Shown: positions 4,519 to 64,000, numbered from the stretch's first letter. The stretch: 64,000 nucleotides of DNA from an uncultured Erysipelotrichaceae bacterium (GCA_902793375.1 CADBDE010000003.1:30039-94038), one strand, 5' to 3'. Made by a program: numbers and translations. The notes: generated from the letters alone by a model not told the origin.

Positions 4519-4555
4519 ATTATATCAAAAAAAGTAGATTATTTCTACTTTTTAA

Positions 4556-11736: not shown

Positions 11737-11790
11737 AAATAAACTGTATATAATACTATATATAATAATATAGTAATAATCAAGCACTTA

Positions 11791-13923: not shown

Positions 13924-14043
13924 ATTACACCCTCACTTTATTATAATTCTATTATATATTATAATTATTAAAAACAACGTAACGAAATTATATTTTTAAT
14001 GTAAATGAGTGTAAAGAAAAACGAACTAAAATAGTTCGTTTTG

Positions 14044-14244: not shown

Positions 14245-14285
14245 AAATATAACTGCACATAATACTATAAATAATCAAGCACTTA

Positions 14286-36044: not shown

Positions 36045-36084
36045 TTTAAAAAGCAATTAGAATACTAATTGCTTTATTTTTTTA
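36045..36084 (-). terminator. Hairpin terminator (bidirectional) overlapping the stop of 36074..37339
   Basis: aagcaattag-aatac-taattgctt followed by attttttt on the plus strand, and by an A-run on the other side. Confidence 0.45.
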
Positions 36085-39040: not shown

Positions 39041-39082
39041 AATAAAAATATGATATAATTAAGATAATCTTGGGGTGATTAT

Positions 39083-39547: not shown

Positions 39548-39549
39548 CT

Positions 39550-45370: not shown

Positions 45371-45412
45371 CTTGCACCTCTTTTATACAAATTGATTATA
45401 ACATAAAAAGGA

Positions 45413-46415: not shown

Positions 46416-46423
46416 ATTATCAC

Positions 46424-47188: not shown

Positions 47189-47190
47189 AT

Positions 47191-48018: not shown

Positions 48019-48590
48019 TTCTTTTTTAAATAATTTTTACCTTTTTCAAGTGCATATATAGAATTTAATCCTCCTATATATCCTTTTTCTATGAGACAAT
48101 CGATTTCTTCAAAATCAACAAGTATATATTTTATAAATTCACCCTTATCTAGTTTTTGTTCTTTAACTTTTTTACAATGAAGTGCTACAAAGTAATGGTT
48201 ATATGCTTCTGAACAAGCTTGATCTTGATAAAAGCTTCCAAGCGATACAAACTCATCAGTTGTATATCCAGTCTCTTCTAATAGTTCTCTTTTTGCTGCA
48301 TCAAGAGCGGTTTCATTTTTTTCGATGTATCCAGCAGGAAGACCAACATCAACTGTTCTTTTAGTAAACACTCTTGGTTCTACTGCAAGTATTACTTTAT
48401 TATCTTCAGTAATAGGAAGAATAATAGATGCACTACCGCTTCCTCCATTTTTAAGTATTTTTTCTCTTTTTATTATTTCTCCATTATTAAGCTTACATTC
48501 ATAAGTTTTTGTTGTAAGAAAGTTACCACTTTCTGTTTCAATCATTTGAAGTGTCTTTAATTCATTAAAGTACTTTTCTATTTGGTTCAT
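48015..48590 (-). CDS. Nudix hydrolase (ADP-ribose pyrophosphatase-like)
   Basis: Nudix box GYIEKNETALDAAKRELLEETGY (Gx5Ex7REUxEExGU). Confidence 0.75.
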   Translation of the reverse strand: MNQIEKYFNELKTLQMIETESGNFLTTKTYECKLNNGEIIKREKILKNGGSGSASIILPITEDNKVILAVEPRVFTKRTVDVGLPAGYIEKNETALDAAKRELLEETGYTTDEFVSLGSFYQDQACSEAYNHYFVALHCKKVKEQKLDKGEFIKYILVDFEEIDCLIEKGYIGGLNSIYALEKGKNYLKKK

Positions 48591-50061
48591 TTCTTTTCAC
48601 CAACTTCTTGGCTTCCTCAATCATATCTTTTTTAAAGTTTACATAATTTTCTGTTCCATCTACATAATACTCATGAGGCATTACTGTTCTTTTAACCTCA
48701 GGATATAGTGTATCCATTTCTTTATTACAGTAATCTTTCTTTTCTAAAATACTTGGATCTTTATATACTAATTCTCCATTTATAAATATTGGTTTTTGTA
48801 ATTCAACTAAATCAAAGTTATCTATTGTAGTACTCTTTAAAAAGTCAGTTACACTTACTATTGTTAATTCTCTTTCATTTACTTTTTCATTATGTCTTGC
48901 TAGGACATCTGCTAATGCATAACCTGTTTTTTTATCGTATGCTCTATAAAGTTTCTTATAATCTGGATTTACTATTTTAATTGTGTCATTACTTAATTTA
49001 ATCTTTGGTACCCAAACACCTTTTTCTTTTCTCCAAGCTACTTCTTTATAAACACAACCCATTCTTCCTTCTGGTTTTGAAATGTTATCTCCTACTCCTA
49101 AGCTATCAAACTTAGCTCCTTGAGCAATTAATGTTTCTATTGTTTCAGCAGTAAGACCATTACTTAAACATATTTTAGCTTGTGGAAAACCTGCTTCATC
49201 TAACATTCTTCTTGCTTCTTTAGATAAGTATGCTAAGTCTCCTGAATCAATTCTAATTCCTATATGATTCGTATCAAGTCCATTTTCTTTCATATATTTA
49301 AATGTTTTAATAGCATTTGGAATACCACTTCTTAAAGTATCTATTGTGTCAACTAGTAATATACAGTTATTTGGATATGTTTTAGCATATTCAATAAATG
49401 ATTCTAATTCAGTTTCATAAGACTCTATCCATGAATGTGCTTGTGTTCCCATTGCTTTCATATTTAACATATTTGCAGCGATTATATTACTTGTTCCAAC
49501 ACATCCTGCCATAATACCATAGATTGATGCATCTATTGCAGCTTCGCAGCCATCAGCTCTTCTTGCACCAAACTCCATTACTCCAACATTTTTTGGTGTT
49601 GCTTCAATTATTCTTCTTGCACCAGTTGCATGTTCCATCGCACCATTTACTATTGATAATAAAGCTGTTTCTACAATTTGAGCTTCTATTAATGGAGCTT
49701 TTACTGTTACGATTGGCTCATTAGGAAACACTGGAGTTCCATCAGGTACTGCATATATGTCTCCAGTAAACTTAAATTTTTTTAAATAATTGATAAAATC
49801 TTCATCATAACCTTTTCTTCTAAAATAATCTAATTCTTGTTCACCAAACTTAAAGTTTTCGATAAATGGAATTACTTTATCAAGCCCTGCCATAATAGCA
49901 TATCCACCATTATTTGGAACTTTTCTAAAGAAAACATCAAATACTGCTTCTTCATCTTTCTTACCACTTTTTAAATAACCATTAGCCATTGTGAATTCAT
50001 ATTCATCATCCATTAATGTATAGTTTCTAGGAAGTCTTTCATATCCATTATAAATTTCCAT
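48565..50061 (-). CDS. pncB: Nicotinate phosphoribosyltransferase
   Basis: 498 aa; N-terminal LMDDEYEFTMANGYL and central MEFGARRA...GTQAHSW match NAPRTase family signatures. Confidence 0.85.
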   Translation of the reverse strand: MEIYNGYERLPRNYTLMDDEYEFTMANGYLKSGKKDEEAVFDVFFRKVPNNGGYAIMAGLDKVIPFIENFKFGEQELDYFRRKGYDEDFINYLKKFKFTGDIYAVPDGTPVFPNEPIVTVKAPLIEAQIVETALLSIVNGAMEHATGARRIIEATPKNVGVMEFGARRADGCEAAIDASIYGIMAGCVGTSNIIAANMLNMKAMGTQAHSWIESYETELESFIEYAKTYPNNCILLVDTIDTLRSGIPNAIKTFKYMKENGLDTNHIGIRIDSGDLAYLSKEARRMLDEAGFPQAKICLSNGLTAETIETLIAQGAKFDSLGVGDNISKPEGRMGCVYKEVAWRKEKGVWVPKIKLSNDTIKIVNPDYKKLYRAYDKKTGYALADVLARHNEKVNERELTIVSVTDFLKSTTIDNFDLVELQKPIFINGELVYKDPSILEKKDYCNKEMDTLYPEVKRTVMPHEYYVDGTENYVNFKKDMIEEAKKLVKRNEPNRKVL

Positions 50062-50062
50062 A

Positions 50063-50680
50063 TTATATACCTCTTTTCTTTTTAGCTAAAACTTTTATTC
50101 CATTAGCTTTCATTTCTTCTATTGCTCTTTTTGTTACTTCGTCAGCATCATGCCCTGGCGCATCATAAGTATCGATTCCATCTTCTGCTACATAGATATC
50201 AATATCTCTATCTAATTGATCAAATAGATTTCTTAATGTAATTCCTCCATTTTTAACACATACTTCTGATAGGCATCCCATAAGAAGTACTGTTTTAAGA
50301 TTTTTTAAACGATCTATAAAATCCATAAATCCTGGTGCAAATACGAAGTTTGTACTATTTTTAGTATAGTCATATGAACAATCTTTATAATCTTCTAGCT
50401 CATCAATTAACATTGGCTCTTCTGTATCTATAGAACAGTGTTCACCAAATGTTTTGTATTCAACTGAACCTTTATGATGCAAATCTCTTATAATTGCAAT
50501 TGCTTTGTTATCATCTTCTTTATAAGATTTTAAAAGTTCATGTTGTCTTCTTACTACCCTCATAATTGATGGTGCAGCAAGAGCTCCTTTCACTACGAAT
50601 CCTTTAACCATATCTATGTTTATGGCTAAGTGTTCAATTTTTAATTCTTGTTCTTGATTTGTTTTGTTATTAATTATCAT
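50063..50680 (-). CDS. pncA: Isochorismatase-family cysteine hydrolase, nicotinamidase-like
   Basis: Catalytic-triad context IDMVKGFV (Asp), K at about position 113, and LLMGCLSEVCV (Cys), as in PncA/isochorismatase hydrolases. First gene of the NAD operon. Confidence 0.65.
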   Translation of the reverse strand: MIINNKTNQEQELKIEHLAINIDMVKGFVVKGALAAPSIMRVVRRQHELLKSYKEDDNKAIAIIRDLHHKGSVEYKTFGEHCSIDTEEPMLIDELEDYKDCSYDYTKNSTNFVFAPGFMDFIDRLKNLKTVLLMGCLSEVCVKNGGITLRNLFDQLDRDIDIYVAEDGIDTYDAPGHDADEVTKRAIEEMKANGIKVLAKKKRGI

Positions 50681-50699
50681 TTTTCATCTCTCCTCTTTT

Positions 50700-50815
50700 T
50701 AACAACTTGTTAATAACATTAGGTATAAAAAAAGTAAATATTTCACACCTGTTATTAACATTATATTAATAACAAACAAAAATGTCAATACTCTTTTTAA
50801 CATTTTGTTAAAAAG
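50700..50815 (-). promoter_or_regulatory. Promoter/operator region of the NAD salvage operon with three palindromic elements (candidate NrtR operators)
   Basis: TGTTAATAACA at 50708-50718; its exact reverse complement TGTTATTAACA at 50750-50760; and TTTAACATTTTGTTAAA at 50796-50812. All lie within 140 bp upstream of the pncA start. Confidence 0.4.
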
Positions 50816-50926
50816 ATATACATTCTACTGTAAAGCAAACAAAAACAATTGCATCAATTATTGGGGAAATGATGAATTTGAAATAAAAGTGAGGCAATTA
50901 AAAAAAGTTATATAAATATAACTCTT

Positions 50927-51904
50927 TTAATCATCTTCATAATAATAATCATCTTCTTCCATATTTTCTTCTTCAAAATGGAATGGCTCATATTCACCTT
51001 TTTTAACTAAATCTTCTTCCCAAGACATTAAAGTAGTATCATTTTTTGATTTAGAATTATTAAATAATTTATATAAGAATCCAAAAAATAAAGTTTTCTT
51101 TATTTTCTTTTCATTTTCTTTTTTTGCTTTTTCTAATTCTTTTAAATTTTTTTCTAATTCATTTATTTCATTACTTATTTTATCAAATTTATCATAAATA
51201 AACGAATCATCAAATACATATGTATATCCTTCATCTTCATATTCTTCTTTTGGTTTTAATTTCTCTTCAGCTTTCTTTCTTTTTCTTTCTTCAATTACAT
51301 TTTTTCCTTCTTCAATTTTATCAAGTAATTCATTATAATCATCTATTGTATAATTTAAATAATCACAAGAATATCTTAGTGCAGATCTTAATTTATATAT
51401 ATTTTTTTCGTCAATAAAATCTTCTAATTTTTTAATATAATTTAAGTATTTTTTGTCATCTTTAAACGTCACCGTAAACATCAAAACATTTAAGTATTTT
51501 TTGTTTTCATAGTAAGTATTTTTTATTAATTCAACAATTTCTTTAATTCGTTCAATATTCTTTTTATATTCTACTAACATTCTTTCTTTTTCATATATCA
51601 TTTTTAATGACATTAATAAAGCATATACATGTTTACAATATTTATCCGTACTTTTGTGATATTCACACTCACAAGAAACATCGACAATATTATCATTATC
51701 AAAATCAATTGATACTTTATATTCTTTAGTACCTTCTACTAATCCAGATACTTTATTATTTGACTTATGAATGGCTTTTACTCTATCAATAGAATAATAA
51801 TTCTTTCCTCTTGACTTTATAATTTCTCTAAATAAATAATCATATTTCGTATTATTTAAATCATACATTTTTTCATCATAAGTTACTTTATCTAATTTCT
51901 TCAT
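50927..51904 (-). CDS. SWIM zinc-finger domain protein with acidic Tyr-rich C-terminus
   Basis: VSCECEYHKSTDKYCKHVYALL fits the SWIM CxCxnCxH zinc-finger pattern. C-terminus EENMEEDDYYYEDD. Confidence 0.5.
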   Translation of the reverse strand: MKKLDKVTYDEKMYDLNNTKYDYLFREIIKSRGKNYYSIDRVKAIHKSNNKVSGLVEGTKEYKVSIDFDNDNIVDVSCECEYHKSTDKYCKHVYALLMSLKMIYEKERMLVEYKKNIERIKEIVELIKNTYYENKKYLNVLMFTVTFKDDKKYLNYIKKLEDFIDEKNIYKLRSALRYSCDYLNYTIDDYNELLDKIEEGKNVIEERKRKKAEEKLKPKEEYEDEGYTYVFDDSFIYDKFDKISNEINELEKNLKELEKAKKENEKKIKKTLFFGFLYKLFNNSKSKNDTTLMSWEEDLVKKGEYEPFHFEEENMEEDDYYYEDD

Positions 51905-51986
51905 AGAATCATCTCAATAATTATTATATCATATTAAAAAATAAGGGGATTTAAAAAAACTTAAGATTTATACTTAAGTCAAAATA

Positions 51987-52517
51987 CTATTTCACATTTC
52001 CAATTCTTTTTACATAGTCTTTATAAATTTTAAAAAATTCTTTAGCATCAAAATAATAACTATCAATATTAAATTCTCTCTTTATAATACCTCTATTTGT
52101 ACATAGTTTTATTATGCAATCTCCACTTAAATCAATATTTTTTGATAATTCAATAAACTCTCTAGAATCATTTAATCCTGAAATATTAATAGGAAAAGTA
52201 GCAGAAAATAATTTAGATACACCTGTTATATTTTTACCGGTTCTACTAGTAATCTCACTTAATAATGTTGGATTTATATTTATTTTATATTCTTTTTCTC
52301 CTTTTACTATTTTTATACTATTAATAGATATTGGAAGTCTTGATTTATTTTCTATAAGCAAATCAAAAATATAAATATATTTATCCTTAATATAATTTCT
52401 AGTATATGAATTGATAATTAAATTAATATTTTTGTGATTACACTTATAAGTATAAATAGCATTACCTAACGATAAGACAAAAGCTAATATTGCAATAATG
52501 ATTGAAATTATTTCCAT
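51987..52517 (-). CDS. Hypothetical membrane-anchored protein (176 aa)
   Basis: N-terminal TM helix IISIIIAILAFVLSLG. No other motif. Confidence 0.35.
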   Translation of the reverse strand: MEIISIIIAILAFVLSLGNAIYTYKCNHKNINLIINSYTRNYIKDKYIYIFDLLIENKSRLPISINSIKIVKGEKEYKININPTLLSEITSRTGKNITGVSKLFSATFPINISGLNDSREFIELSKNIDLSGDCIIKLCTNRGIIKREFNIDSYYFDAKEFFKIYKDYVKRIGNVK

Positions 52518-52541
52518 ATTTTTTTACCTCCATTTTTATTT

Positions 52542-53462
52542 CTATTTATTGGTGTCATATTTATCAACTATTTTTATCAAGTCATTTTTTAAATTTTCTA
52601 TTTTTATCTCATATTCTTTTTTCGACTTTACTTCTTTATGAATGCAATTATTTATAATTCTTATTGCCTCTTTTTGCTGATCAGTACCATTCTCCTCAAT
52701 ATATTTACAAAAGTTATCATTTAAAGAATTTAGTTTGTTATCCATTAAATCATATTTCTTAATAGTATCTTCATCTTTATTAAAAAAACTAATGAGATTA
52801 TTTGAATCAAAATATTCTTTCAAAATGTGTATAGATTCCTCATTTTCTCTTGAAAACATTTTATCTATTTCATTTGTTGATTCATTATATTTTTGCTCTA
52901 TATAATTAATTTTTTCGTTTATTTTATCAAAAGAATATTGAATTCTAGGCTTTGATAATATGATTGATTCTATTCTCTTTTTTGATATTTTATTATATAC
53001 TTCATAGAAAATATCATTAATAATTATTCGTAATTTTTCAATAATTTTGAAATCAATAAACATCTCAAATAACATAGTATCATCTTCATCATCTTTAAAA
53101 AAATGATTTACTTGGTCTCTTATATATTTAATTATTTTATAAAAATTTGATTTGTAATTTGGTTGATTATAGTATTTTTTATCAGTTGCATAAAACTCTT
53201 TGTTTATAAAAAGTTCAAAGTCATTAAAACGCTTACATTTTCCAAATAAATCTTTTGAATTTTTTATAGAATTTAACAGGTTATATATAGAAGAACAATA
53301 AACTTTATATACCCTGTTTCTTTCAGTCATAGTGTCAATAGATAATTCTTTGTCATCAAATTCAACATATATTTTAGATAGTGTATTAGATAATTCTACA
53401 AAATCTTGAATTCTTAAAATACGTTTTATTTGTTTATTTGAATATGTCATAATATACCTCAC
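52542..53462 (-). CDS. Hypothetical protein (306 aa), all-helical; possible Abi-like gene by context only
   Basis: ORF only. Located in the defense-type island. Confidence 0.3.
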   Translation of the reverse strand: MRYIMTYSNKQIKRILRIQDFVELSNTLSKIYVEFDDKELSIDTMTERNRVYKVYCSSIYNLLNSIKNSKDLFGKCKRFNDFELFINKEFYATDKKYYNQPNYKSNFYKIIKYIRDQVNHFFKDDEDDTMLFEMFIDFKIIEKLRIIINDIFYEVYNKISKKRIESIILSKPRIQYSFDKINEKINYIEQKYNESTNEIDKMFSRENEESIHILKEYFDSNNLISFFNKDEDTIKKYDLMDNKLNSLNDNFCKYIEENGTDQQKEAIRIINNCIHKEVKSKKEYEIKIENLKNDLIKIVDKYDTNK

Positions 53463-53547
53463 TTTAATGTAATATTATATCATAAACTAGAATAACTTTT
53501 TTTCAAATTTATTATATAATTTTTTTATACAATTTATAATAAATAAT

Positions 53548-53580
53548 TAAAAACCGATGATAATCATTCATCGGTTATTT
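53548..53580 (-). terminator. Rho-independent terminator after the KAP NTPase gene
   Basis: aaccgatga-taatcat-tcatcggtt followed (minus sense) by ttttaattattt. Confidence 0.5.
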
Positions 53581-55476
53581 TCATAGTAATTCAAATTTTT
53601 CAGATAAAATGCTTAATAAATAATTTATAGCTTCTTTTTTTGTAACGCCATACTTATCTTTTTCCAATTTGTTAATACCATTTATTAATTCTTCAAATGA
53701 TTCTTTATCACTATCATAATACTCCTTCATATTTCCATTATTATATATTCTATCTATGCAATACTTAAAATAGTATATATTTTTATTATTACTTTTATCA
53801 ATATTACTTATTATTCTTTCTATATTCAATTTTGATAAAAAACCTTTCACATTAAAAAAGTAATTATAATTTTCACTTTCTCGAATATAATTATATAATT
53901 TTATTCCCCAATCATCATCAGTTAATATATTATCAAGAGAATCTTTATTAATATTGATATTTTTGTTTTTACTTGCTATTTTTAATCTTTCTATATTTTT
54001 ATTATAAGTATTCAATACCTTCTCATCTCTAATGATTTGCTCATAATTTATGTAATACTTTCTATCAAGATTTTTATCTATCTTATCTTCCATAATAGTT
54101 ATTATCTCATCAATAAGTTTAGTTTCAAAATTCAAATTCTGTAATGCTGATAATGTTACAATTATTTTTGGGAAAACACCACATGTATATAAATCATTGC
54201 TTAATTCATCTTTTAATGAATTTAATAGTTCATGCAATTTATCATCATCTAATTCCCAATAAATCTTTAATTTTGAAAATGCATTATCTGTATTTTCAAA
54301 GTCAGTTTCATTACTATTAATATATTCATCTATCGTACTCTCTATTTCTTTTATATCCACATCTTTATTTAGAATATAGTCATCAACAAACTTAAATGCT
54401 ACAAAATACATAAGCATGCTCTGATGTTCATCATCACCAAAACATGTTGTTTGATATTTTATTCCACCAGACCAATTCAACATTTTATTACCTGCTTTAA
54501 TATTAATAATATCAATAATAAAATTAATATATATTTTTGAATACATTTCTTTTTTTAATTTTAATTTAGCTTCATTTATTTTTAAAAACAGTTCATAAAA
54601 ATCTTCGAATATACATTTTATTGTTCTTAAATTGCTACAAGTATATAAGTTGGTTTCATTAATCAATATTTTTTTATGTTCCTTTAAAAACATAAAGTAA
54701 TCTTTATCATATTTATATATATCAATCAACCTATCTATTATTGTATCTAAATTAGGATTATATTTATAAGTTTTACCAATTAGTTTTTCTTTAATAATCC
54801 TGTAATTATAATTTATTTCATATAAACGATTCACTCTTTCTTTTACAGTAGAAATAGTCGGTGTAGTATTATCAATTTTATTACCAAAAAAATCTTTATT
54901 TTCAGGATCTTCATAATTAATGCTTGATTGCATCGTAGATATAAGTTTCAATTCATAGTTCTTATCAAAATCTATTTTACCAATTTCATTTTCATTTGCA
55001 ATTATAACTACTTTTATACCATTATGTTCAACGAATGAATTAATATATGCTAAGCACACATTAATATCTAAATTTACTCTTTCTAAATCATCAAATATTA
55101 ATAAATAATTTTTTAAATCACATTTTTCATTTAGTTTTCCAAACACTTCTGAATAATCTAAATCTAGTTTTAGTATTTTAGCTGCACTAAAACCAATTGA
55201 AAGCATTTTTGAATACTTTCCTGTGATTTGTAAATAAATATTGGCAGATATTATATCTAGAGAATCTACACCATATAATGATATGTATATAGGTTTCTTA
55301 AATTTTAAAGATGGTTTTTTCCCATTACTTTTAATATCATCATTTAATTTTGGAATCAATTCTTCTTTAACAAAATGTGTTTTCCCTGATCCCCAGTCTC
55401 CATCAATTAATACAGCATAATTTATTCTGTCATTTACTATATATTTTTTTATTTCTTCTATTAAATCTAAATTCAT
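53581..55476 (-). CDS. KAP-family P-loop NTPase
   Basis: AVLIDGDWGSGKTHFV is the KAP-type GxWGxGKT Walker A; LIFDDLER is the Walker B region. 631 aa. Confidence 0.7.
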   Translation of the reverse strand: MNLDLIEEIKKYIVNDRINYAVLIDGDWGSGKTHFVKEELIPKLNDDIKSNGKKPSLKFKKPIYISLYGVDSLDIISANIYLQITGKYSKMLSIGFSAAKILKLDLDYSEVFGKLNEKCDLKNYLLIFDDLERVNLDINVCLAYINSFVEHNGIKVVIIANENEIGKIDFDKNYELKLISTMQSSINYEDPENKDFFGNKIDNTTPTISTVKERVNRLYEINYNYRIIKEKLIGKTYKYNPNLDTIIDRLIDIYKYDKDYFMFLKEHKKILINETNLYTCSNLRTIKCIFEDFYELFLKINEAKLKLKKEMYSKIYINFIIDIINIKAGNKMLNWSGGIKYQTTCFGDDEHQSMLMYFVAFKFVDDYILNKDVDIKEIESTIDEYINSNETDFENTDNAFSKLKIYWELDDDKLHELLNSLKDELSNDLYTCGVFPKIIVTLSALQNLNFETKLIDEIITIMEDKIDKNLDRKYYINYEQIIRDEKVLNTYNKNIERLKIASKNKNININKDSLDNILTDDDWGIKLYNYIRESENYNYFFNVKGFLSKLNIERIISNIDKSNNKNIYYFKYCIDRIYNNGNMKEYYDSDKESFEELINGINKLEKDKYGVTKKEAINYLLSILSEKFELL

Positions 55477-55633
55477 TTTATCCTCCTAAAAAGAAAAATT
55501 CTATACTTTAATGTATAGAAATCTATAATTACATTATACTACTTTTTCCAATAAATGTCTGAAATAATTATAAATAAAAAAAGTATCATATTAATAATAA
55601 TTAGTTACATTATTCTTTTAATTTTTAAAATAA

Positions 55634-56638
55634 CTATTTTATTATTTCTTTCACAATTTCTTCTCCATGTGTTTTTACTTTAATTTCAGGAAGTATATTA
55701 GAATTTTTTAATTCATCAAGAGTCTCTGGTCTAATTTCAACTAATTTATCTAACTCTTCATTAGTAAACACATAATAAGCAGGAATCCCCATTTCACTAG
55801 ATCTATTCTTTCTTAATTCAATTAACCTATCCTTTAAATCATCTACAACTGTAACTGTATTGTTATTACAATATTTCTCTTTATAGTAATTATAGTAATC
55901 AACAACATCATTTGATGATATATCTAAATAATACTGTGCAATTGATTCCATATCTTTTTTATATTCAATTGGATCAAGTCTATCTCTATGATCAATTTCA
56001 TATTGAATTTGTCTTGTTAATGAATCAGCACGAAGAACTTTATACTTCATATCACTTGGAGCTTTACTAGTATTTAATATTGTATCTTGATTAGCAGCTA
56101 CTACCAATACTCTTCTATAATACTCATAATTACTTGATGCAAACATTTTTTTAATTGTAGAAGTATTCTTTTCCCATATCTTTCTCAAAACTTCTCTTTG
56201 AGCTTCTACTTGCGTTAAAGGAGAATTCATTCCTTTTTTAATTATCTTTCCATTAATATTTAGTTCTCTTATAAAATCTCCTTTTTCATTAACAGTAATA
56301 TTTCCAACAAGATTTTTACATTCAACATAATAAATAAATACAGGAGTAATAATAACATAATCTATTTGTGCAGTTAAATCTTCATATTTAACTTTTATAT
56401 CTCTTAAAATATACATACCAATATTAGATTTCTTTAATTGATATGCTATTTCATTTTCTCCATCTAATCCCTTTTTAATAATATATAATTCACTTAATAA
56501 TTCTTCATTATTAGGATATTCTTCATTTAATCTTTTTAAAGCATCATATCTATCTTGTAAATCACTATTCTCTTTATAAAAAACTGTATCTTTAAATCTA
56601 AATGCTTCTATACTACTTAATAAACCCATTTTTACCAC
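55634..56638 (-). CDS. NERD-domain nuclease-related protein with C-terminal HRDC/HTH-like tail
   Basis: GENEIAYQLKKS...LRDIKV...AQIDYVIITPVFIYYVECKNLVGNITV fits the NERD core (QIDhhhh...G.hhhE.KN). Confidence 0.65.
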   Translation of the reverse strand: MVKMGLLSSIEAFRFKDTVFYKENSDLQDRYDALKRLNEEYPNNEELLSELYIIKKGLDGENEIAYQLKKSNIGMYILRDIKVKYEDLTAQIDYVIITPVFIYYVECKNLVGNITVNEKGDFIRELNINGKIIKKGMNSPLTQVEAQREVLRKIWEKNTSTIKKMFASSNYEYYRRVLVVAANQDTILNTSKAPSDMKYKVLRADSLTRQIQYEIDHRDRLDPIEYKKDMESIAQYYLDISSNDVVDYYNYYKEKYCNNNTVTVVDDLKDRLIELRKNRSSEMGIPAYYVFTNEELDKLVEIRPETLDELKNSNILPEIKVKTHGEEIVKEIIK

Positions 56639-56837
56639 CCAACTGAATTATAGCATATTTATTTGTAATTAACCTAGTTATTTTCTCTATCCATGAATAT
56701 TAAATAATTCTAGATTGTATCACAAGCATTTAAAAAAAAAGCAAAATGTTTATCAGTTATACATATATTTTTCAGAAAATAGTATATAAGTTCATAACTT
56801 AAATAAATAAAATATAAAAAAAGCTAGACTTAAAAAT

Positions 56838-57635
56838 CTAATTTTTTTCCTTCTCGCTATTCTTATTGCTAAGTAAACTTCCTATTCTTATCTTTCTTTT
56901 TTCTAATTGTTTCTTATATATTTCATCCTCTAAAATAATTTCAATAGCACTTTTTAGTAATTTAAATTGTTCATTGCATTCTTCTTCAGACAAGTTATGA
57001 ACTCCATCACTTAGTAGCGAGTATAAAACATTATATCCAGTACTTTTTAGCATTTCATTTAAAAGATTTTCCTTAACAAGTTGTTTTATAATATCTTTTG
57101 TTTTCATGCCGGTAAAATCTGTTTTGCTTTTATTTTTTGCTTTTTCTATTAAGGATTCAAAAACTCTTCTCAAATAAACAACTGACGCAATGTTCAAATT
57201 ATTTTCTTTAGATTTAATTGATAGAAGATAATATTCCTTCTCAGATTCATCCAACTCTTTGATGATATTATCATTTATTTCTTTGCTAAAATACATTGAG
57301 GATGGATATTGTCCAAATTTTACTAAGTTTCCCTTTCCTAAAGTTTCAAATGATACTTTAAAACTATGATTATACTCACATGAAAAATCATAAATTAATA
57401 ATTCATTATTATGTACGATTAGCGCTTCATTCACGCTTTTACTTAAATAATAACCAGCTGTAGTTACATCTGAGCATTTGAATATTCTTTTTTCTTTGCA
57501 TCTTGGACAATACAATTCAACTTTGATAGACTTACTATAAGTTGGAAAAAGAAACTCAAAATCTTCTGATTTAACATTTATTTCTGATCCAATTGCTTTT
57601 AATAATAAATCTTCATTTATTATTTTATCATTCAT
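56838..57635 (-). CDS. Hypothetical protein with N-terminal C4 zinc-ribbon and C-terminal helical domain (possibly DUF4145-like)
   Basis: CPRCKEKRIFKCS...(20 aa)...CEYNH zinc ribbon. C-terminal LLNEMLKSTGYNVLYSLLSDGVHNL is reminiscent of the DUF4145 R..GN..AH helix. Last gene of the MTase-REase-MazG-NTPase operon (20-nt gap). Confidence 0.3.
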   Translation of the reverse strand: MNDKIINEDLLLKAIGSEINVKSEDFEFLFPTYSKSIKVELYCPRCKEKRIFKCSDVTTAGYYLSKSVNEALIVHNNELLIYDFSCEYNHSFKVSFETLGKGNLVKFGQYPSSMYFSKEINDNIIKELDESEKEYYLLSIKSKENNLNIASVVYLRRVFESLIEKAKNKSKTDFTGMKTKDIIKQLVKENLLNEMLKSTGYNVLYSLLSDGVHNLSEEECNEQFKLLKSAIEIILEDEIYKKQLEKRKIRIGSLLSNKNSEKEKN

Positions 57636-57655
57636 ATTTTTATCACTCCTAATTT

Positions 57656-59389
57656 TTAATAACTATTATTATTATTTATATATTTACTTAAATATTTTCT
57701 TAGCCCTTCATCACACACATAAATATATGTCCCAAGCATACCCCTAAGCATCATTGTTCTGTAGATATTCAATACATATTCTAACAATTCTTCATCTGTT
57801 GTATTGGCTTTACCTTTAGCATCAAAATAATTTTTTCTATCAGTAATAAATTCTTTTGTTTTTAAATCATACCTTAACTCATTTCCTATTATTAATCCTA
57901 CATAATTTAAATCAAATCCTTGAGTTGTATGAATACTTCCAATTTCATTTACTGAATTTGGAGAATTAATCCAATCTGTCGCTTTCGAATTCCATATATA
58001 TTTGAATCCATCAATTTCTATATCAAATATTCCATTTTCAAAATTATTCTTTATTTCTTTTTTGTCCCAATACAAATGTAGTCTTTTACCTTTACTATTC
58101 CATTTCCATGCATATCCAGCAACATTTCTACACAAACCAAATTCAGAATCTTTTTTTATAATATCTTGAACCATTTCATTAACATCATCAAACATTTTTA
58201 AATCATATTTATTGAATTTTATCTTCTTTATTGGTGGTTTATCACTAAAAATCGATTTAACATAATCAACATATTCTTCTCCACCTGCAATACATCTCAA
58301 TTGAGCAGTCAATTTATATGTTTTATAGTTTTTTCTTTGCATTAATTCATAAAATTTTTCTTTTCTTATATCTGTTGGTTTTATCGATTGATCTTCATCA
58401 TAGAAAAATATTTGATATTTACTTTTTTTCAATACCCAATCTAGTTCTGTTCCTTCTTTTCCTAAACCCATTTTTCTATTATTCTCATCAAAAGTACAAT
58501 ATTGTGTTAAATTTTTTCTTCTTCTAAGCCTATGAGCTTCATCTACAATTAATACATCATATATTTCATTTGATTTACCAATATCATGTGGACTTAATAC
58601 CATTCTGGAGTTTAACCCTTTAATGTGTTTAAAAACATTCCTTAAAGTAGTTCTTAAATTATCCATTGGTATAACTAAACCTATTTTTAAGTCATCGATA
58701 GCATCATTAATTTTTAATATATCAGAAAGGTTTTGTTCAACTTGATCTTCTTCTATTTCAATTGTTTTTTTATCTTTTGCCTGCATCAATAATTTAAGAA
58801 TATAAATACCTAAAATAGTTTTTCCAGTACCAGCTCCACCCTCAACTACAAATGTGGCCGGTTCTTTTGTGTTAACATAATCTGCTAAATCTGATAATAT
58901 ACTATTAACAATCATATATTGATCAATAGTTAAGGATTTGTATGGAGAATATTTAAACAAATCTGTATTTTCAATCATTCTCAAATCATTCTTAACAAGG
59001 CCTTTTGTTTTTAATTGAATCCATATTTCTCGAAATTTATCTTCATACATTTTTCTTTGATAATAATCATGGTTTTGTAATCCACCATTCCCATTTTGCA
59101 ATAAATATTTATTATCAGCAGACATATATTTTATTAAAAAAGACTCAAGATCTAAGATAGATGATTTATTAAATGTATCATCTCCTATAATGCTTATCTT
59201 ATCTAAATTTCTTCTTACTTCATTCGCCCAATGCTGATTTGATCTAATACTAGCATCAGTAGTTTCTCCAATATAAGCTTCTTCCTTATTGTTAATTATA
59301 TAAACTACCGGCCAATTACTTCCATATTTTTCATTTTTTAGAACATTAGAAGTACCAGCATTAAACATCTTAGTAATAATCTCTGCCAT
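57656..59389 (-). CDS. GIY-YIG nuclease-like N-terminal domain fused to a DUF2075/Schlafen-like SF1-type P-loop NTPase (Nhi-like architecture)
   Basis: N-terminus VVYIINNKEEAYIGETTDASIRSNQH resembles GIY-YIG (Y...YIG...R...QH). Core FVVEGGAGTGKTILG (Walker A) and VLIVDEAHRLRRR (Walker B, DEAH-like). 577 aa. 11-nt gap from the MazG gene. Confidence 0.6.
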   Translation of the reverse strand: MAEIITKMFNAGTSNVLKNEKYGSNWPVVYIINNKEEAYIGETTDASIRSNQHWANEVRRNLDKISIIGDDTFNKSSILDLESFLIKYMSADNKYLLQNGNGGLQNHDYYQRKMYEDKFREIWIQLKTKGLVKNDLRMIENTDLFKYSPYKSLTIDQYMIVNSILSDLADYVNTKEPATFVVEGGAGTGKTILGIYILKLLMQAKDKKTIEIEEDQVEQNLSDILKINDAIDDLKIGLVIPMDNLRTTLRNVFKHIKGLNSRMVLSPHDIGKSNEIYDVLIVDEAHRLRRRKNLTQYCTFDENNRKMGLGKEGTELDWVLKKSKYQIFFYDEDQSIKPTDIRKEKFYELMQRKNYKTYKLTAQLRCIAGGEEYVDYVKSIFSDKPPIKKIKFNKYDLKMFDDVNEMVQDIIKKDSEFGLCRNVAGYAWKWNSKGKRLHLYWDKKEIKNNFENGIFDIEIDGFKYIWNSKATDWINSPNSVNEIGSIHTTQGFDLNYVGLIIGNELRYDLKTKEFITDRKNYFDAKGKANTTDEELLEYVLNIYRTMMLRGMLGTYIYVCDEGLRKYLSKYINNNNSY

Positions 59390-59400
59390 AGTACCACTTC

Positions 59401-59715
59401 CTACAATTTATTATATTTAGTGCTAACACCTTTAGCTTTTTCTACAGGATATTTTCTAGCGGTTTTTCCCATTTTATCTAAAACAATTTGTTTAGGATCA
59501 ACACCAAGCTTGTCTGCCATTAATAAACAATAATTAATAACATCTGCTAATTCTTCTTTTACTTCATCTAAATTATATTCACTATTCCATTGAAAACATT
59601 CTAAAAGTTCTCCAGCTTCAATACATATACTTTTAGCTAAATTCTCTGGAGAATGGAATTGATCCCAATCTCTTTCTCTTGTAAATTCAACGACTTTATT
59701 TGATAAATCTTTCAT
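59401..59715 (-). CDS. MazG-like nucleotide pyrophosphohydrolase (all-alpha NTP-PPase)
   Basis: RDWDQFHSPENLAKSICIEAGELLECFQW and EELADVINYCLLMADKLGVD match the two EExxE/D helices of MazG-family NTP pyrophosphatases. 104 aa. Confidence 0.75.
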   Translation of the reverse strand: MKDLSNKVVEFTRERDWDQFHSPENLAKSICIEAGELLECFQWNSEYNLDEVKEELADVINYCLLMADKLGVDPKQIVLDKMGKTARKYPVEKAKGVSTKYNKL

Positions 59716-59724
59716 ATATATCTC

Positions 59725-60813
59725 CTATGCAGTAACTCTATAACTTACTGGTGTCATTTTCATATTTATTATTTCTTTATATGTATAAGTTTTATAATTA
59801 GGAAATTCCGAATTAACATTAGTAACCATGTACAAAATATAATTATCTTTATGTTCATTCATAAATTTCAATTCTCCTGATGATAAGTTAAATACTTCTT
59901 TATTACTTTGAGTAGCTTTTACTTCAATATATTTCTTTACACCATCTTCAATATATTCAATATCATATGGCGAAAATTTATAAGTTTTACTTGTATGAAA
60001 TAAATCATTATCTTCTAGCAACTTAGATTTTAGTAACTCATATACAAATTCTTCACCCTTTAAACCATTACTACTTCTTGTTCTATTTATTTCTTCAATT
60101 TCAATATCTTCTTTACCGGTTACCAAATTTCGTTTACATGTAACTACAACATTATTTTCATAAGAAAAGCTATCATCTATTTTTAATTTTTGTCCTACAC
60201 CTTTACCTTCTTTAAAAACGCTTGTTAATAAAATTCCTTTGGGTCCAACTAATTTTATTAAAAAATTTAATGTACGGGTTTCAGAATAGTAAACAAACCC
60301 ATTAACTACAAAAGCATAATCACCATTTTCTTCCATTATTTTGTCGAGTATTAATCTATTATTAATATTAAAACCATCTTTTCTATAATCAAAAGAAATT
60401 GGATAATGAATCATTAATCTTCCTAAATGAGTATTACTATTATGTGACGCGTTAATTATATTGGCTGTCTCAGAAGTTTCTTCTTTTATATACATACAAT
60501 ATGAGGCATCAACATCTAATTTTTCACCATTAACTAATATATTATCAAAAACAAATATATCTGTAACATTTGTTTTATTTTTTTCATTTTTTCTGCAAGC
60601 ATCTATTAAATCATCAGGAATTTTATTATCATCCACCCTACAATTCATATCACGTAATTGTAATATATCGTTTCTCCATTTATTTGGATTTTTACTTTGA
60701 TTAAGTTCTGTTTCCACACTAGCTGTGTGACCTTTTTTATAGTTATTATACATCCCATATCTAAGTGATGTTTCGGATATTTTAAATTTTAATTCTTTCA
60801 TAATAATCTCCAA
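59725..60813 (-). CDS. Putative Type II restriction endonuclease, PD-(D/E)xK fold, cognate to the adjacent C5-MTase
   Basis: C-terminal SPYDIEYIED...KYIEVKAT gives a P-Y-D ... E-V-K arrangement, the PD-(D/E)xK catalytic motif. Start codon abuts the MTase stop. Confidence 0.5.
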   Translation of the reverse strand: MEIIMKELKFKISETSLRYGMYNNYKKGHTASVETELNQSKNPNKWRNDILQLRDMNCRVDDNKIPDDLIDACRKNEKNKTNVTDIFVFDNILVNGEKLDVDASYCMYIKEETSETANIINASHNSNTHLGRLMIHYPISFDYRKDGFNINNRLILDKIMEENGDYAFVVNGFVYYSETRTLNFLIKLVGPKGILLTSVFKEGKGVGQKLKIDDSFSYENNVVVTCKRNLVTGKEDIEIEEINRTRSSNGLKGEEFVYELLKSKLLEDNDLFHTSKTYKFSPYDIEYIEDGVKKYIEVKATQSNKEVFNLSSGELKFMNEHKDNYILYMVTNVNSEFPNYKTYTYKEIINMKMTPVSYRVTA

Positions 60814-60814
60814 A

Positions 60815-61918
60815 CTAGCCTAACCAATCCTCATCTATTTCTTTTAATTGATTAAATATATGATCCAAAAGAATATAGACTAAATTTACATCCCAACCAT
60901 TTCCTGCTCTTTTTGATAATTGAGTATAAGACTGATTTCCAAATACTATATCAACTTTTCTACCAACACCATCTAGTCCTTCAAGACCCATAAGTCTAAA
61001 TTGCTCTGTAACAGACATTTTTCTAACAACTTCTTTATTTCCATGTGGCTCTATAACCCTTAAAGCATTATGTTCTGGCATTGTAATGGTAATTGAATAA
61101 CCATCTGTTTTTATTTTTTTATTATATACATCAAAACATAATGCTTTCTTTACTTTAAAACTATCTACATTATGTTTTTCTTTAAGATGTTTAATTTGTT
61201 TATCAGACAAATACATTTCTCTTGGAACATATCCATCCGGATCTAGAAAATCTGCCATAAGCTTTCCATTGTGAATTTCATTAGGAACCATTGAAAAATC
61301 TACTGGTAGCCCTCCTAATCTTGCAAACATCCATACTCTTTCTCTGTTTTGAGGCACACCATAATCTTTACTATTTAATAATGCAACTCTTAGAGGTGAA
61401 TCTTTACCACCACTTGTATATCCCATATCTATAAGCATATTATCCATTTGTTTTCTTGTAGACTCAAACTTTTTTGAAAAAAATCCTTTAACATTTTCTA
61501 ATAAAATATATTTTGGTTTTTTTGCTTCACATATTCTCATAATATGTTGAAATAAAGTTCCCCTACCATATGGATCATCTACACCTTTTTGCATTCCAGC
61601 AGTTGAAAAAGGTTGGCAAGGAAATCCTCCCATAAAAATATCAAAATCTGGGACATCATCTGGATTAAGCTTTGTAATATCACCAAAATTCTTAATATTT
61701 TTTCCATCTTTATTTTTGTGATTTAAATCATATAATTCACAAGCATATTTATCTATTTCAGAATAACCAATTATTTCAAAATCAAAATTTGGATACTTTC
61801 CTTTTAGTCGATCTAAAGCAAAATGCCCCCCGCCATAACCTGCAAATCCTTCAAATACTTTTAATTTTTTCCTTTTTTTGTTTGCCATGACAAACCTCCT
61901 AAATTGTTTTACATACAA
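60815..61918 (-). CDS. DNA (cytosine-5)-methyltransferase
   Basis: Motif I VFEGFAGYGGG, motif IV GGFPCQPFSTAG, motif VI ENVKGF, motif VIII QNRERVW. Confidence 0.9.
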   Translation of the reverse strand: MYVKQFRRFVMANKKRKKLKVFEGFAGYGGGHFALDRLKGKYPNFDFEIIGYSEIDKYACELYDLNHKNKDGKNIKNFGDITKLNPDDVPDFDIFMGGFPCQPFSTAGMQKGVDDPYGRGTLFQHIMRICEAKKPKYILLENVKGFFSKKFESTRKQMDNMLIDMGYTSGGKDSPLRVALLNSKDYGVPQNRERVWMFARLGGLPVDFSMVPNEIHNGKLMADFLDPDGYVPREMYLSDKQIKHLKEKHNVDSFKVKKALCFDVYNKKIKTDGYSITITMPEHNALRVIEPHGNKEVVRKMSVTEQFRLMGLEGLDGVGRKVDIVFGNQSYTQLSKRAGNGWDVNLVYILLDHIFNQLKEIDEDWLG

Positions 61919-61971
61919 TTATATCATATAATTATTTAAAGTCTTTAATTTTTTAATGATAGATTATATAA

Positions 61972-62994
61972 TTAAATACTAAAGTTACTAAAGAAATCAT
62001 CTTTCACATTTGCACGACGAGATCTATTACGCAACTTCATAAGAGCTTTTGATTCAATTCGGAGTATTGCTTTAGGTGTTACACCAAACTCTTCAGCGAT
62101 TTCTTTAAGCGTTCTTGGTTTCCCATCTCCAATTCCAAACCTTAGTCTCAATACTTTTTCTTCTCTATCAGTTAAAGTTAGTAAAATAGCATCCAATCTT
62201 TCATCATCGACACCCACTAAATCATATAATTTATTAAACGTTAATAATTCTTCTTGTTCTTGTTGCTCTTTTTCTACCGCTTCTTCAGATATATTCTCAC
62301 CTAATTCATTTAAAGCAGTTGAAGCATATTTTACAAACTTTATTGTTTTTCTTGTTTTATTTTTATATTCTTCACATAATATTTTTTCATTATTTAAATA
62401 AGTATCATCACGTGTAACAAACAAAACATCATATTTTGAATTACATAATAACGATTCCCATATATATTCATCACAAATAGTTAAACTTTTATATCCTCCC
62501 TTATCACTTCTTGGTACTCCACCTAAATTGTTTCTCTTTATTGCTTCATTATAAGCAAAATCATTGTCTTTGATTATTATTGTGTGACTATTTTCAATGA
62601 TCTTATTAAACATACTAAGCACAATATCTTTGTTTTCATCATTTATCATTTTTTCTATTTCATTTTTTAATGGAATATAACTTTCTTTTATTTTAGAAAC
62701 TAATTTAGCATTATCCTTATTTAGTTCAGTTATTTTTTCTGTAAAAATCCCAAGCGGTTCTAAATTAAACATGTTATTTGTGATTTGTTTCTCTTTTGAT
62801 TCAACTTTATCAAATAATCCTTTTAACTCTGTAACCCTATTTCTTTTGAATTCTCTTATAACTTGTTCGGTAATTATCAAATTATTTGATGATGATAGTT
62901 TATCTAGTATTTCTTTATTTTCTTCTTTATATCGATAAAAATCCAAATATTTATTAGTATCAATAAAAATTTTAAGCATATTTGCCACCACCAA
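61972..62994 (-). CDS. Fusion protein: N-terminal PIN-like nuclease domain plus C-terminal sigma-70 region-4 helix-turn-helix
   Basis: N-terminus KIFIDTNKYLDFY (PIN Asp-1 motif). Later LFVTRDDTY (PIN distal acidic motif). C-terminus EKVLRLRFGIGDGKPRTLKEIAEEFGVTPKAILRIESKALMKLR is a textbook sigma-70 region 4 (RpoD/SigA-like 4.2 HTH). Confidence 0.5.
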   Translation of the reverse strand: MVVANMLKIFIDTNKYLDFYRYKEENKEILDKLSSSNNLIITEQVIREFKRNRVTELKGLFDKVESKEKQITNNMFNLEPLGIFTEKITELNKDNAKLVSKIKESYIPLKNEIEKMINDENKDIVLSMFNKIIENSHTIIIKDNDFAYNEAIKRNNLGGVPRSDKGGYKSLTICDEYIWESLLCNSKYDVLFVTRDDTYLNNEKILCEEYKNKTRKTIKFVKYASTALNELGENISEEAVEKEQQEQEELLTFNKLYDLVGVDDERLDAILLTLTDREEKVLRLRFGIGDGKPRTLKEIAEEFGVTPKAILRIESKALMKLRNRSRRANVKDDFFSNFSI

Positions 62995-63143
62995 TTACAT
63001 TATATCATAAAGAAAAGTCATATTTCTATTCAATTATTGCATACTTATATTTTTTTATAATAATATCTACCTTTTGACAAAAATAATGATAATAACTATT
63101 TTATCATTAGATTTGTCAGAACAAAAAAAGAACATTTCTGTTC

Positions 63144-64000
63144 TTATCTTTTAAGTTTTAAACTATATTCTTCTACTACTTCTTCGTTAGTTTTATTAAA
63201 TTGTTTAACAAATACTTTTTCTCCCATAAATAATCTTCTATAATTTGATTCATTTACTTTAAGTCCTTTTGCTTCTAAGAAACTATTTCTTGCTTTAGAT
63301 AAAGTAAGACTTTGCATTAAATGTTTTGGTTCTCTAACAAGAATACTATGAAGTCCTAATGAACTATAAAAAGAAAGCTTTTCTTTAATAGATTCACTAC
63401 TTAAAGTAACAATACCTGGATACCTTTTTATTATATCTTTAACATTATCATCTTGATAATCACATTCTTTTATAGTTTTTATTTTTTCTTTAATCTTATC
63501 AGGACTCATACTAAACAACGTTCTTTGATGAGAATAGAGTCTTATTGCTTCTTCTTTAGTAAATCCAAGTTCACTAAGTAAATTTATTCTTTCAATAATA
63601 GATTCTTTTGTATATCCAAGTATTGCTGGATTAATTCTTAATATTGAATATATTGCTTCTCTTTTAAATCCAATATCTATTAGATCATTTATTTTATTAT
63701 ATAATGTATCATTGGTAAAAAGTAAAAGAGTTGGTGTTCTTTTAAATACTTTTAAAGCATCTTCTTCACTCATTCCAAAAGATTTATAAAGATCTAATCT
63801 ATTTTTAATATAATTAGATGAACGAGATAATAAAGCAGGAGATTTCTTAACCATTCCTATTACTTCTTCTTTAGTGTATCCTAAGGATAAAAAATAATTA
63901 AATGATTCATCTACTTTATTTTTAAATGCAAGAACATTAGGAGCAAGAATAATCATCTTTTTAATATCTTCTTTTGAAAATCCTAAAGATAATAAATGTT
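63144..64000 (-). CDS. mTERF-like repeat protein (partial; the reading frame continues beyond the right window edge, so the true N-terminus is outside the window)
   Basis: At least six tandem repeats of about 30-35 aa of the type LSLGYTKEEVIGMVKKSPALLSRS / LYKSFGMSEEDALKVFKRTPTLLLFT / LIDIGFKREAIYSILRINPAILGYT / LSELGFTKEEAIRLYSHQRTLFSMS. These match the mTERF motif (L..LGfs.e.i.k.l...P.lL..s). The frame upstream of the annotated Met (63956) stays open to 64000 and continues with HLLSLGFSKEDIKKMIIL. Confidence 0.55.
   Translation of the reverse strand, partial: HLLSLGFSKEDIKKMIILAPNVLAFKNKVDESFNYFLSLGYTKEEVIGMVKKSPALLSRSSNYIKNRLDLYKSFGMSEEDALKVFKRTPTLLLFTNDTLYNKINDLIDIGFKREAIYSILRINPAILGYTKESIIERINLLSELGFTKEEAIRLYSHQRTLFSMSPDKIKEKIKTIKECDYQDDNVKDIIKRYPGIVTLSSESIKEKLSFYSSLGLHSILVREPKHLMQSLTLSKARNSFLEAKGLKVNESNYRRLFMGEKVFVKQFNKTNEEVVEEYSLKLKR

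Follow-up and report, generated by a model that had tools for sequence, protein, structure and literature searches.

Validated anti-phage defences that join a nuclease to a DUF2075/superfamily 1B (SF1B) helicase include Nhi of S. epidermidis, the Nhi-like proteins and the lactococcal AbiO (10.1101/776245; 10.1101/2022.05.11.491447; PMC13064643). Single-gene KAP NTPases with unassigned C-terminal regions, from gut Firmicutes, were shown in a 2026 study to protect E. faecalis in a Walker-B-dependent manner (PMC13552941), and NOV_C/DUF3883 domains are mostly known from modification-dependent enzymes and from Tiamat TmtA (PMC6765204). Here, we describe a region of an uncultured Erysipelotrichaceae bacterium (positions 50927-64000 of the window, i.e. 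the whole 64,000-nucleotide stretch of DNA that was analysed) in which genes of these types stand together among 12 genes, each encoded on the minus strand, and the G+C content is 20-30% (Table 1). An earlier note, made from the sequence alone, had described a defence island; its gene list, strand and named domains were all reproduced with Pfam, PADLOC (v2) and NCBIfam, and its reading is supported by matches to defence models (full-length for PDC-S49 and MTase_II, partial for AbiO, TmtA and MzaA) together with cargo polymorphism among close relatives. We hold with considerable confidence that the region is a chromosomal defence-gene hotspot of a gut bacterium with approximately 25% G+C, made up of independently acting, horizontally exchangeable modules that lie between a NAD-salvage operon, bordered by a SWIM zinc-finger gene, and an mTERF/UvrD-like side. 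The island is ordinary as such; its uncharacterised leads are a two-gene MazG/DUF2075 pair and a rare fusion of a PIN domain to sigma factor region 4 (PIN-sigma-4).

The exchange of cargo is apparent from the other genome and metagenome loci that were compared with the window (designated by L numbers), one of which, L001, is a 111-kb human-gut metagenome contig identical to the window that supplies the DNA past its right edge. L059, reached via its 99%-identical mTERF gene, runs collinear to the window (96.4% nucleotide identity) through the genes for a UvrD-like helicase, an 80-aa protein, a Peptidase_MA-like protein, mTERF, PIN-sigma-4, the C5-cytosine methyltransferase (MTase), the NOV_C protein and the MazG-like protein, and this collinearity breaks precisely where the MazG gene reaches its 3' end (window position 59402). 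The cargo of L059 past the break (8644-14631) comprises a DpnII/MboI-like nuclease gene, a different DUF2075 helicase of 625 aa (PADLOC Nhi 9e-13, AbiO 3e-15) and the Hachiman pair HamA/HamB (HamB match 1.6e-65). Since MazG is kept and then followed by other genes, the nuclease partner of the helicase has been swapped, from a fused GIY-YIG domain in the window to a separate PD-(D/E)XK-type enzyme in L059. Cassette swapping is thereby documented at gene-boundary resolution, the same MazG gene preceding different nuclease-helicases in two strains. At the opposite end, L005 encodes a PncB identical in sequence to that of the window, and its genes from window position ~51942 onwards, a DEDDh exonuclease fusion among them, are unrelated to those of the window. 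Both loci carry other cargo beside near-identical, conserved flanks, a comparison with related strains being one of the checks proposed in the earlier note, and the interval 51942-59402 is proven to be a variable core.

As the SWIM gene is conserved in L005 and the cargo differs from ~51942, this gene represents the left border rather than cargo; the gene itself was correctly recognised in the earlier note, but its counting as an island member has to be revised to that of a conserved border gene. The part of the gene nearest pncA (its 3' end) is 96-97% identical between L005 and the window (tblastx), in contrast to ~62% amino acid identity in the N-terminal half that faces the variable region (L005 5602-6219 versus window ~51320-51940), a difference that points to diversifying change, or to recombination breakpoints, within the border gene itself. 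The SWIM protein has weak PADLOC matches to PDC-S62 and DpdE, and a metagenome scan with it returned just four short or distant loci and no further variants. Its left neighbour is a NAD-salvage operon in the order NrtR, CinA, NadD, NadE, radical-SAM, NUDIX, PncB and PncA, and G+C amounts to 0.20-0.21 in the SWIM-to-KAP genes versus 0.30 in pncA. The region thus resembles known defence islands and hotspots in that recognised defence genes are clustered on one strand, cassettes are replaced between strains so that content differs between conserved flanks, and G+C is below that of the flanks; it is unlike them in showing no mobility signature or integrase/tRNA anchor, a trait frequent among islands though not a necessary one, its flank marker being the NAD-salvage operon plus the SWIM gene.

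The MazG/DUF2075 pair, which we take from its predicted domains to be a novel form of the Nhi/AbiO-type nuclease-helicases, combines a GIY-YIG-DUF2075 protein with a small MazG-like protein. The N-terminal 140 residues of the DUF2075 protein are predicted to adopt a GIY-YIG fold, as PF01541 is matched by 15 of 16 diverse family N-termini (best 3.4e-6), a profile of the domain searched against the PDB places T4 endonuclease II (EndoII) and I-TevI on top, and residues Y30, Y39, G41, R49, E82 and N99 are invariant in the family. Equally invariant in the DUF2075 family are Walker A (184-191, GGAGTGKT) and Walker B (283-287, VDEAHR). In PADLOC, the protein matches AbiO partially (9.6e-12, residues 140-220) and has no Nhi match at E<=0.01. 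The family is abundant, with more than 6500 matches of which the top 120 are 75-85% identical, and the closest relatives in genome collections stem from metagenome-assembled genomes labelled uncultured Bacilli, 'Tenericutes', Coprosoma and Erysipelotrichaceae. The MazG-like partner is clearly homologous to mammalian DCTPP1/RS21-C6 (PDB 2a3q and 6sqw, 1.1e-17; PF12643 78 bits against a cut-off of 27), to which its metal-binding motif E33-x-x-E36 ... E55-x-x-D58 as well as W17, W43 and Y62 can be aligned. This homology and the GIY-YIG domain, like the HRDC domain on the NERD protein (see below), go beyond the earlier note.

Across 33 genome loci and the metagenome loci, the MazG-like gene is the only constant neighbour of the DUF2075 gene, which it adjoins in 22 of the 33 genome loci, being upstream in Bacilli-type genomes and downstream in Butyrivibrio and Acetatifactor (L035, L036 and L048). 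Neither a methylase nor a NOV_C gene adjoins the pair in L015, L017-L021 and L023-L031 or on Bacillus plasmids, the latter including megaplasmids of the Bacillus cereus group. An example is pBMB431 of B. thuringiensis HD-1 (BTK_RS33805 and BTK_RS33800). There, the gene for a 109-aa 'nucleotide pyrophosphohydrolase' (50% identical) lies upstream of that for a DUF2075 protein of 560 aa (32% identical), in which the GIY-YIG motifs are likewise present. Furthermore, MazG and DUF2075 matches lie no more than 300 bp apart in at least 31 of the 37 plasmid records common to both listings. The module therefore spans uncultured gut Bacilli to culturable Bacillus strains. As a system the pair is not contained in PADLOC v2, and the searchable literature yielded no paper that links MazG to DUF2075 or Nhi, or phage defence to DCTPP1.

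With Nhi, the Nhi-like proteins and AbiO, the window protein shares an N-terminal nuclease followed by a DUF2075 core with intact Walker A and B motifs, and a setting in a defence island; it differs from them in that its predicted nuclease is of the GIY-YIG rather than the PD-(D/E)XK type and in having a conserved DCTPP1-like partner gene, none being described for those systems. By analogy, the GIY-YIG/SF1B-type protein would translocate on phage DNA and degrade it. DCTPP1 prefers 5-modified dCTPs, and the activity of the MazG-like protein is inferred to be the hydrolysis of dCTP or 5-modified dCTP, by which it would edit the cytosine-nucleotide pool and either starve or de-modify phage DNA synthesis. 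A combined scheme, in which phage DNA is attacked by the helicase-nuclease and depletion of dCTP or modified dCTP by the pyrophosphatase causes phage DNA synthesis or protective modification to fail, is put forward tentatively, as quite possible if somewhat short of probable. Alternatively, the pyrophosphatase might keep modified dCTP out of host DNA and so spare the cell from its own nucleases. In this the pair would resemble the nucleotide-depletion defences (dCTP deaminase and dGTPase), as a (modified-)dCTP-pool enzyme is predicted in a defence context; unlike those, the MazG-like enzyme is a predicted pyrophosphatase, not a deaminase or triphosphohydrolase, and is paired with a nuclease-helicase. 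The pair may constitute a restriction system with the added role of policing modified cytosine nucleotides, which is a less exotic proposal than the sigma decoy considered below. DUF2075 is the helicase of human SLFN5, SLFN11 and SLFN13; if the two proteins function jointly, nucleotide-pool editing would be linked to a Schlafen-type helicase nuclease, and a bacterial dCTP-acting partner could inform the use of this helicase class in immunity.

Some neighbouring arrangements in the compared loci are of note in this regard. In L050 (4308-5944), the gene for an SRA + NOV_C nuclease of the 5-methylcytosine (5mC)-dependent type shares its first 4 nt with a NUDIX_4 gene, and in L035 a NUDIX-methyltransferase fusion follows MazG. 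These NUDIX genes beside 5mC-related nucleases point to the same theme of a nucleotide-pool hydrolase together with a cytosine-modification-related nuclease. Additionally, a weak SWIM-like match was seen near DUF2075 in L015 (4e-6), which K/E-rich composition may explain.

The second lead is the PIN-sigma-4 protein, whose presence at the right end of the island, along with that of the mTERF-repeat protein, was confirmed. In a 340-aa numbering that starts five residues upstream of the 335-aa call, the PIN domain covers residues 1-215, with the fold and conserved acidic residues present, and the sigma region 4 match covers residues 260-332. After its own family, the next-best matches of the sigma-4 domain are region 4 of primary sigma factors (63-68% identical); it is 58% identical to region 4 of Bacillus/Staphylococcus sigma-A, and its closest PDB match is sigma-A region 4 crystallised bound to phage G1 ORF67. 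Full-length relatives form approximately 30 clusters among 5.8 billion proteins, and none was found in phage or plasmid collections. A search with just the PIN domain retrieves only 317 homologues from 1.84 billion representatives; of the 148 that were checked, three carry sigma-4 and two are fused to a DUF2075 helicase. The latter (P0262, 641 aa, and P0151, 447 aa) are the closest PIN relatives outside the PIN-sigma-4 family at 52-53% identity, and since PIN is also fused to DUF2075, this module serves as the nuclease of an Nhi-like architecture, i.e. as a third nuclease type. In L050, L052 and L053, PIN-sigma-4 genes stand among restriction-modification (R-M), SRA-NOV_C, GmrSD, Abi_alpha, AbiA-like reverse transcriptase (RT) and other defence genes with no constant partner, the fusion being surrounded by defence genes in every case.

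The PIN fold with its conserved acidic residues is shared with VapC-type PIN toxins; unlike these, PIN-sigma-4 has no antitoxin gene beside it, as no ORF of at least 60 aa is present in the flanking gaps of 83 and 164 nt and no conserved small neighbour in L050-L053. A role as a sigma factor was rejected, regions 1-3 being absent and region 4 alone matching, as was an assignment to MzaA, of which only the C-terminal ~120 residues of a 726-residue model are matched (57 bits, far under the cut-off of 800); none of the Mza partner genes (MzaB-E) is present. The safest reading, judging from the domains, is that of a putative RNase for which the sigma-4 domain would supply targeting or sensing. More speculatively, and quite improbably in our estimate, the protein could be a decoy-type immune sensor whose sigma-4 domain mimics the surface bound by phage anti-sigma or RNA polymerase (RNAP)-appropriating proteins (AsiA/ORF67-like) and by the RNAP beta-flap; engagement of a phage factor, or docking on hijacked RNAP, would then unleash or position the PIN RNase. 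Compatible with such a decoy are the rarity of the family, its defence neighbourhoods, the lack of an antitoxin, a faster-evolving sigma-4 domain (family mean identity 46% versus 58% for PIN; 25-64% to sigma-A region 4) and the loss of -35-reading residues in this copy, whose recognition helix reads T-P-K-A-I-L-R where most family members have S-R-E-E-I-R. The loss of -35 contacts (TRERIRQ to TPKAILR) as a family feature, and with it a pure decoy, was rejected, as it is limited to the window copy and a 97% relative. Were PIN-sigma-4 to sense, or compete with, phage factors that target sigma or RNAP, a new sensing principle would result.

The helicase gene of the MazG/DUF2075 pair also forms part of a run of five genes (MTase, NOV_C, MazG, DUF2075 and u265) separated by gaps of 9-20 nt. 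In this run, the C5 methylase possesses a complete catalytic core (the match extends over positions 2-323 of 324 in the PF00145 profile; M.HhaI match 4e-31) with FPCQ and ENV motifs in its translation. The NOV_C gene, 13 nt downstream, encodes a protein with C-terminal matches to TmtA (PADLOC) and a D280...E293-V-K295 motif, which is not in the NOV_C homologues of L022 and L032; PDB searches with it, single and profile, gave chance matches only, and its N-terminal 250 aa have no family or PDB relative. The two genes are also paired in L010 and L059, and L022 has a more distant version of the pair with overlapping ORFs. From this arrangement the NOV_C protein is presumed to be the restriction partner of the methylase, so that, as in classical type II R-M, an M.HhaI-like methylase would mark self DNA and the NOV_C nuclease would cut unmarked DNA. 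The likeness to M.HhaI-type systems lies in a full-length C5 methylase beside a gene with a PD-(D/E)XK-type nuclease domain, the pair being kept in other genomes; the difference lies in the nuclease, here a NOV_C/DUF3883 protein with an N-terminal domain of no known family.

We read the five-gene run as a composite, namely a type II R-M pair, a two-gene MazG/nuclease-helicase module and the orphan u265, because the R-M pair and the MazG/DUF2075 pair occur apart elsewhere: in L022 they are ~8 kb from each other, in L032 just NOV_C is present within the fetched stretch, and they adjoin only in the window, L059 and the L010-L014 group. The five tight genes of the earlier note's R-M-plus-accessory operon were recovered, but not their status as a single operon unit. 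The same five genes could instead encode one multi-subunit restriction system, with the helicase-nuclease as ATP-dependent restriction subunit and MazG and NOV_C as accessories. Their close spacing and the joint travel of the first four into another genome (L010-L014 group, 84% nucleotide identity to the window, beside a Mob_Pre-integrase gene) would suit such a system too and in this respect count against a composite; in Lachnospiraceae, moreover, 40%-identical GIY-YIG-DUF2075 genes lie directly behind a C5 methylase (overlapping it in L042) with Vsr and MutH-like genes near, and an association of DUF3883 (NOV_C) nucleases with DUF2075 NTPases was noted earlier (PMC6765204). We nonetheless consider a single system unlikely, given that most MazG/DUF2075 loci have no adjacent methylase or NOV_C gene, that L059 keeps MTase-NOV_C-MazG with the nuclease-helicase replaced, and that u265 has no homologue in any other fetched locus.

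On the scale of the whole region, G+C below that of the flanks, the presence in L010 of a HEPN gene and a Mob_Pre-integrase fusion alongside the R-M/MazG/DUF2075 cassette, a resolvase near PIN-sigma-4 in L050 and a TraX-family gene ~5 kb past the right edge would all fit the cargo of a decayed integrative/mobilisable element or a prophage remnant rather than a chromosomal recombination hotspot. Such an origin is rather unlikely, as the variants differ by internal cassette replacement at gene boundaries and not by presence or absence of a whole element, megablast gave no plasmid match, and full-length PIN-sigma-4 is missing from phage and plasmid collections. In addition, neither the 13-kb region nor the ~14 kb beyond its right edge, where the earlier note had suggested looking for a flanking integrase or tRNA, contains an integrase, recombinase or tRNA, and a repeat search found imperfect AT-rich repeats only and no att-like flanking repeats. 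Housekeeping genes of DNA repair and nucleotide metabolism that merely resemble defence would be a more mundane explanation, for DCTPP1-type enzymes are house-cleaning enzymes, the core NAD-salvage operon adjoins the region, and UvrD-like helicases and NERD/HRDC domains are also found in repair proteins. This is extremely improbable in view of the cargo replacement between strains with identical PncB, the patchy distribution and changing neighbours across 33 genomes, and the co-location of these genes elsewhere with Hachiman, R-M, GmrSD, AbiA-like RT and PARIS-like AAA_21/RloB genes.

The defence hotspot, which we prefer, has points to its own detriment. The full-length PADLOC matches are confined to the methylase and the unvalidated candidate PDC-S49, and NERD-HRDC, u265, u306, u176, SWIM and mTERF have no defence-model match. 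An AlphaFold2 (AF2) model of the 577-aa DUF2075 protein, built from a shallow alignment, reached a predicted local distance difference test (pLDDT) score of 39. Two alternative strain variants were recovered, neither of which spans both flanks; the right border of the island is not fixed, and the above-mentioned lack of an integrase, recombinase, tRNA or att-like repeats bears on a hotspot as well.

With respect to the remaining cargo, the KAP NTPase was listed in the earlier note as a component whose mechanism remains unknown, a statement that has been overtaken by the validation of single-gene KAP defences (PMC13552941). It matches the PADLOC candidate PDC-S49 almost throughout (9-621 of 624) as well as phrog_4740 (1e-37), has intact Walker A (GDWGSGKT) and Walker B (IFDD) motifs, and carries a C-terminal ~300 aa of no assigned function. 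This layout, in an organism related to gut Firmicutes, is that of the EF_KAP class, PDC-S49 and PifA. The window protein differs from classical KAP proteins in having no transmembrane segment (maximum 19-residue Kyte-Doolittle value 1.13 against a threshold of 1.6), and from EF_KAP, which is modelled with two such helices, the likeness to EF_KAP being one of architecture. As in single-gene KAP defences, the soluble NTPase might use ATP hydrolysis to control its C-terminal effector region. The KAP gene ends in TGA, from which it follows that the genetic code is table 11.

NERD-type genes lie within three genes of MazG/DUF2075 in L017, L020 and L036. In L017 the protein carries NERD + Top1 zinc ribbon (6651-7463, 34 nt after DUF2075), in L036 the gene (11963-12577) begins 23 nt after MazG, and in L020 it occupies 13120-13866. 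Four loci that otherwise have nothing in common, the window included, thus have NERD genes of differing architecture just downstream of the MazG/DUF2075 pair, which hints at a looser association, be it functional or at the level of the island; the NERD-HRDC protein itself would act as a stand-alone nucleic-acid-binding nuclease. As regards the small genes, u265 starts 20 nt after the DUF2075 gene and is the last of the five-gene run, and the hairpin at 53552-53576 separates the KAP gene from the u306-u176 pair. The u176 gene lies 24 nt downstream of u306 and its product matches phrog_17486 (1e-6), with a 19-residue Kyte-Doolittle maximum of 2.62 at residues 3-21; neither u176 nor u306 has a Pfam, PADLOC or NCBIfam match. 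In L010-L013, a u306 homologue (7e-77, 70% nucleotide identity) directly follows the DUF2075 gene, which suggests that u265, NERD and KAP were inserted between the two in the window strain. A promoter scan of this AT-rich region was uninformative (117 sites versus 122 expected from shuffles).

Table 1. Features of the defence-gene region, with window positions and the matches on which each assignment rests.
Feature	Position	Strand	Evidence
SWIM zinc-finger protein, 325 aa	50927-51904	-	PF04434 24.5 bits vs cut-off 19.6
u176, 176 aa, one N-terminal transmembrane helix	51987-52517	-	Kyte-Doolittle
u306, 302-306 aa	52542-53450/53462	-	gene call only, no family
Terminator-like hairpin, bidirectional	53552-53576	.	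9-bp stem, T-runs on both strands
Soluble KAP-family P-loop NTPase, 631 aa	53581-55476	-	PF07693 30 bits; PDC-S49 2.5e-50
NERD + C-terminal HRDC	55634-56629	-	PF08378 1.6e-16; PF00570 2.6e-13
u265, 265 aa, N-terminal Cys-rich motif	56838-57635	-	weak PHROG matches only
GIY-YIG (predicted) + DUF2075 (Schlafen group-3/SF1B-type) helicase, 577 aa	57656-59389	-	PF09848 8.5e-62
MazG-like all-alpha NTP pyrophosphohydrolase, 104 aa	59401-59715	-	PF12643 5.7e-22
NOV_C (DUF3883) PD-(D/E)XK-type nuclease domain protein	59725-60801	-	PF13020 5.4e-16, residues 253-336
Type II C5-cytosine DNA methyltransferase	60815-61888	-	PF00145 6.2e-57; MTase_II 4e-65
PIN_8 + Sigma70_r4 fusion, 335 aa	61972-62979	-	PIN nuclease + primary-sigma region 4
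mTERF-repeat protein, 374 aa in full (L001)	63144 to beyond 64000	-	PF02536 1e-54 (full gene)

On the right-hand side, membership of the mTERF gene in the island is uncertain: the protein has 17 homologues at E<=1e-20, is 99% conserved in L059 and has no PADLOC match, and an exact-sequence look-up with the truncated mTERF returned no match. The ~14 kb past the right edge hold TraX, GGDEF, YitT and S41-peptidase genes. Between TraX and mTERF, L001 (1761-5054) encodes a divergent UvrD-family helicase of 767 aa, an 80-aa protein and a Peptidase_MA-like protein. The helicase has partial GajB matches, and the idea that it is a housekeeping PcrA marking the end of the island was rejected, as it has no PDB relative at 1e-30; this block might belong to the conserved flank, or else be one more defence-type unit.

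Further observations concern loci related to the five-gene run. In L010, the cassette adjoins a stretch (2363-5470) that encodes a fusion of Mob_Pre to a phage integrase, a HEPN protein and its small partner, and a double-HTH regulator; this Mob_Pre/integrase neighbourhood is likely the vehicle for the cassette's horizontal transfer. In L042, L043 and L044-L047 (Lachnospiraceae and Acidaminococcaceae), distant (40%) GIY-YIG-DUF2075 genes occur without MazG in C5-methylase cassettes, to which Vsr, a MutH-like nuclease, AIPR + DUF4420 or a Schlafen AlbA_2 protein is sometimes added.

Elsewhere in the window, the NAD-salvage operon (44543-50680) is unusual in containing a radical-SAM gene (47191-48018) plus a second NUDIX gene (48015-48590) that overlaps PncB. 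Upstream of pncA, two copies of a partly palindromic box, CTCTTTTTAACAnnTTGTTAAnAAnAT, are located at 50693-50719 and 50791-50817, and between them lies a perfect 12/12 sigma-70-type promoter (50788-50760, minus strand); the CTCTTTTTAACAnnTTGTTAAnAAnAT boxes are probably operator sites of the NAD-salvage regulator (NrtR, 44543-45370). A 984-aa AAA ATPase is encoded at 7979-10933, and large ORFs (373-710 aa) with no Pfam match at 1e-5 are present at 11791-13923, 14286-15998, 16303-17700, 31610-32731 and 36074-37339. Finally, a plus-strand block at 38144-41247, consisting of a LysR-type regulator followed by 154-aa and 565-aa proteins with no Pfam match on record, interrupts the otherwise minus-strand window and coincides with a local reversal of GC skew.

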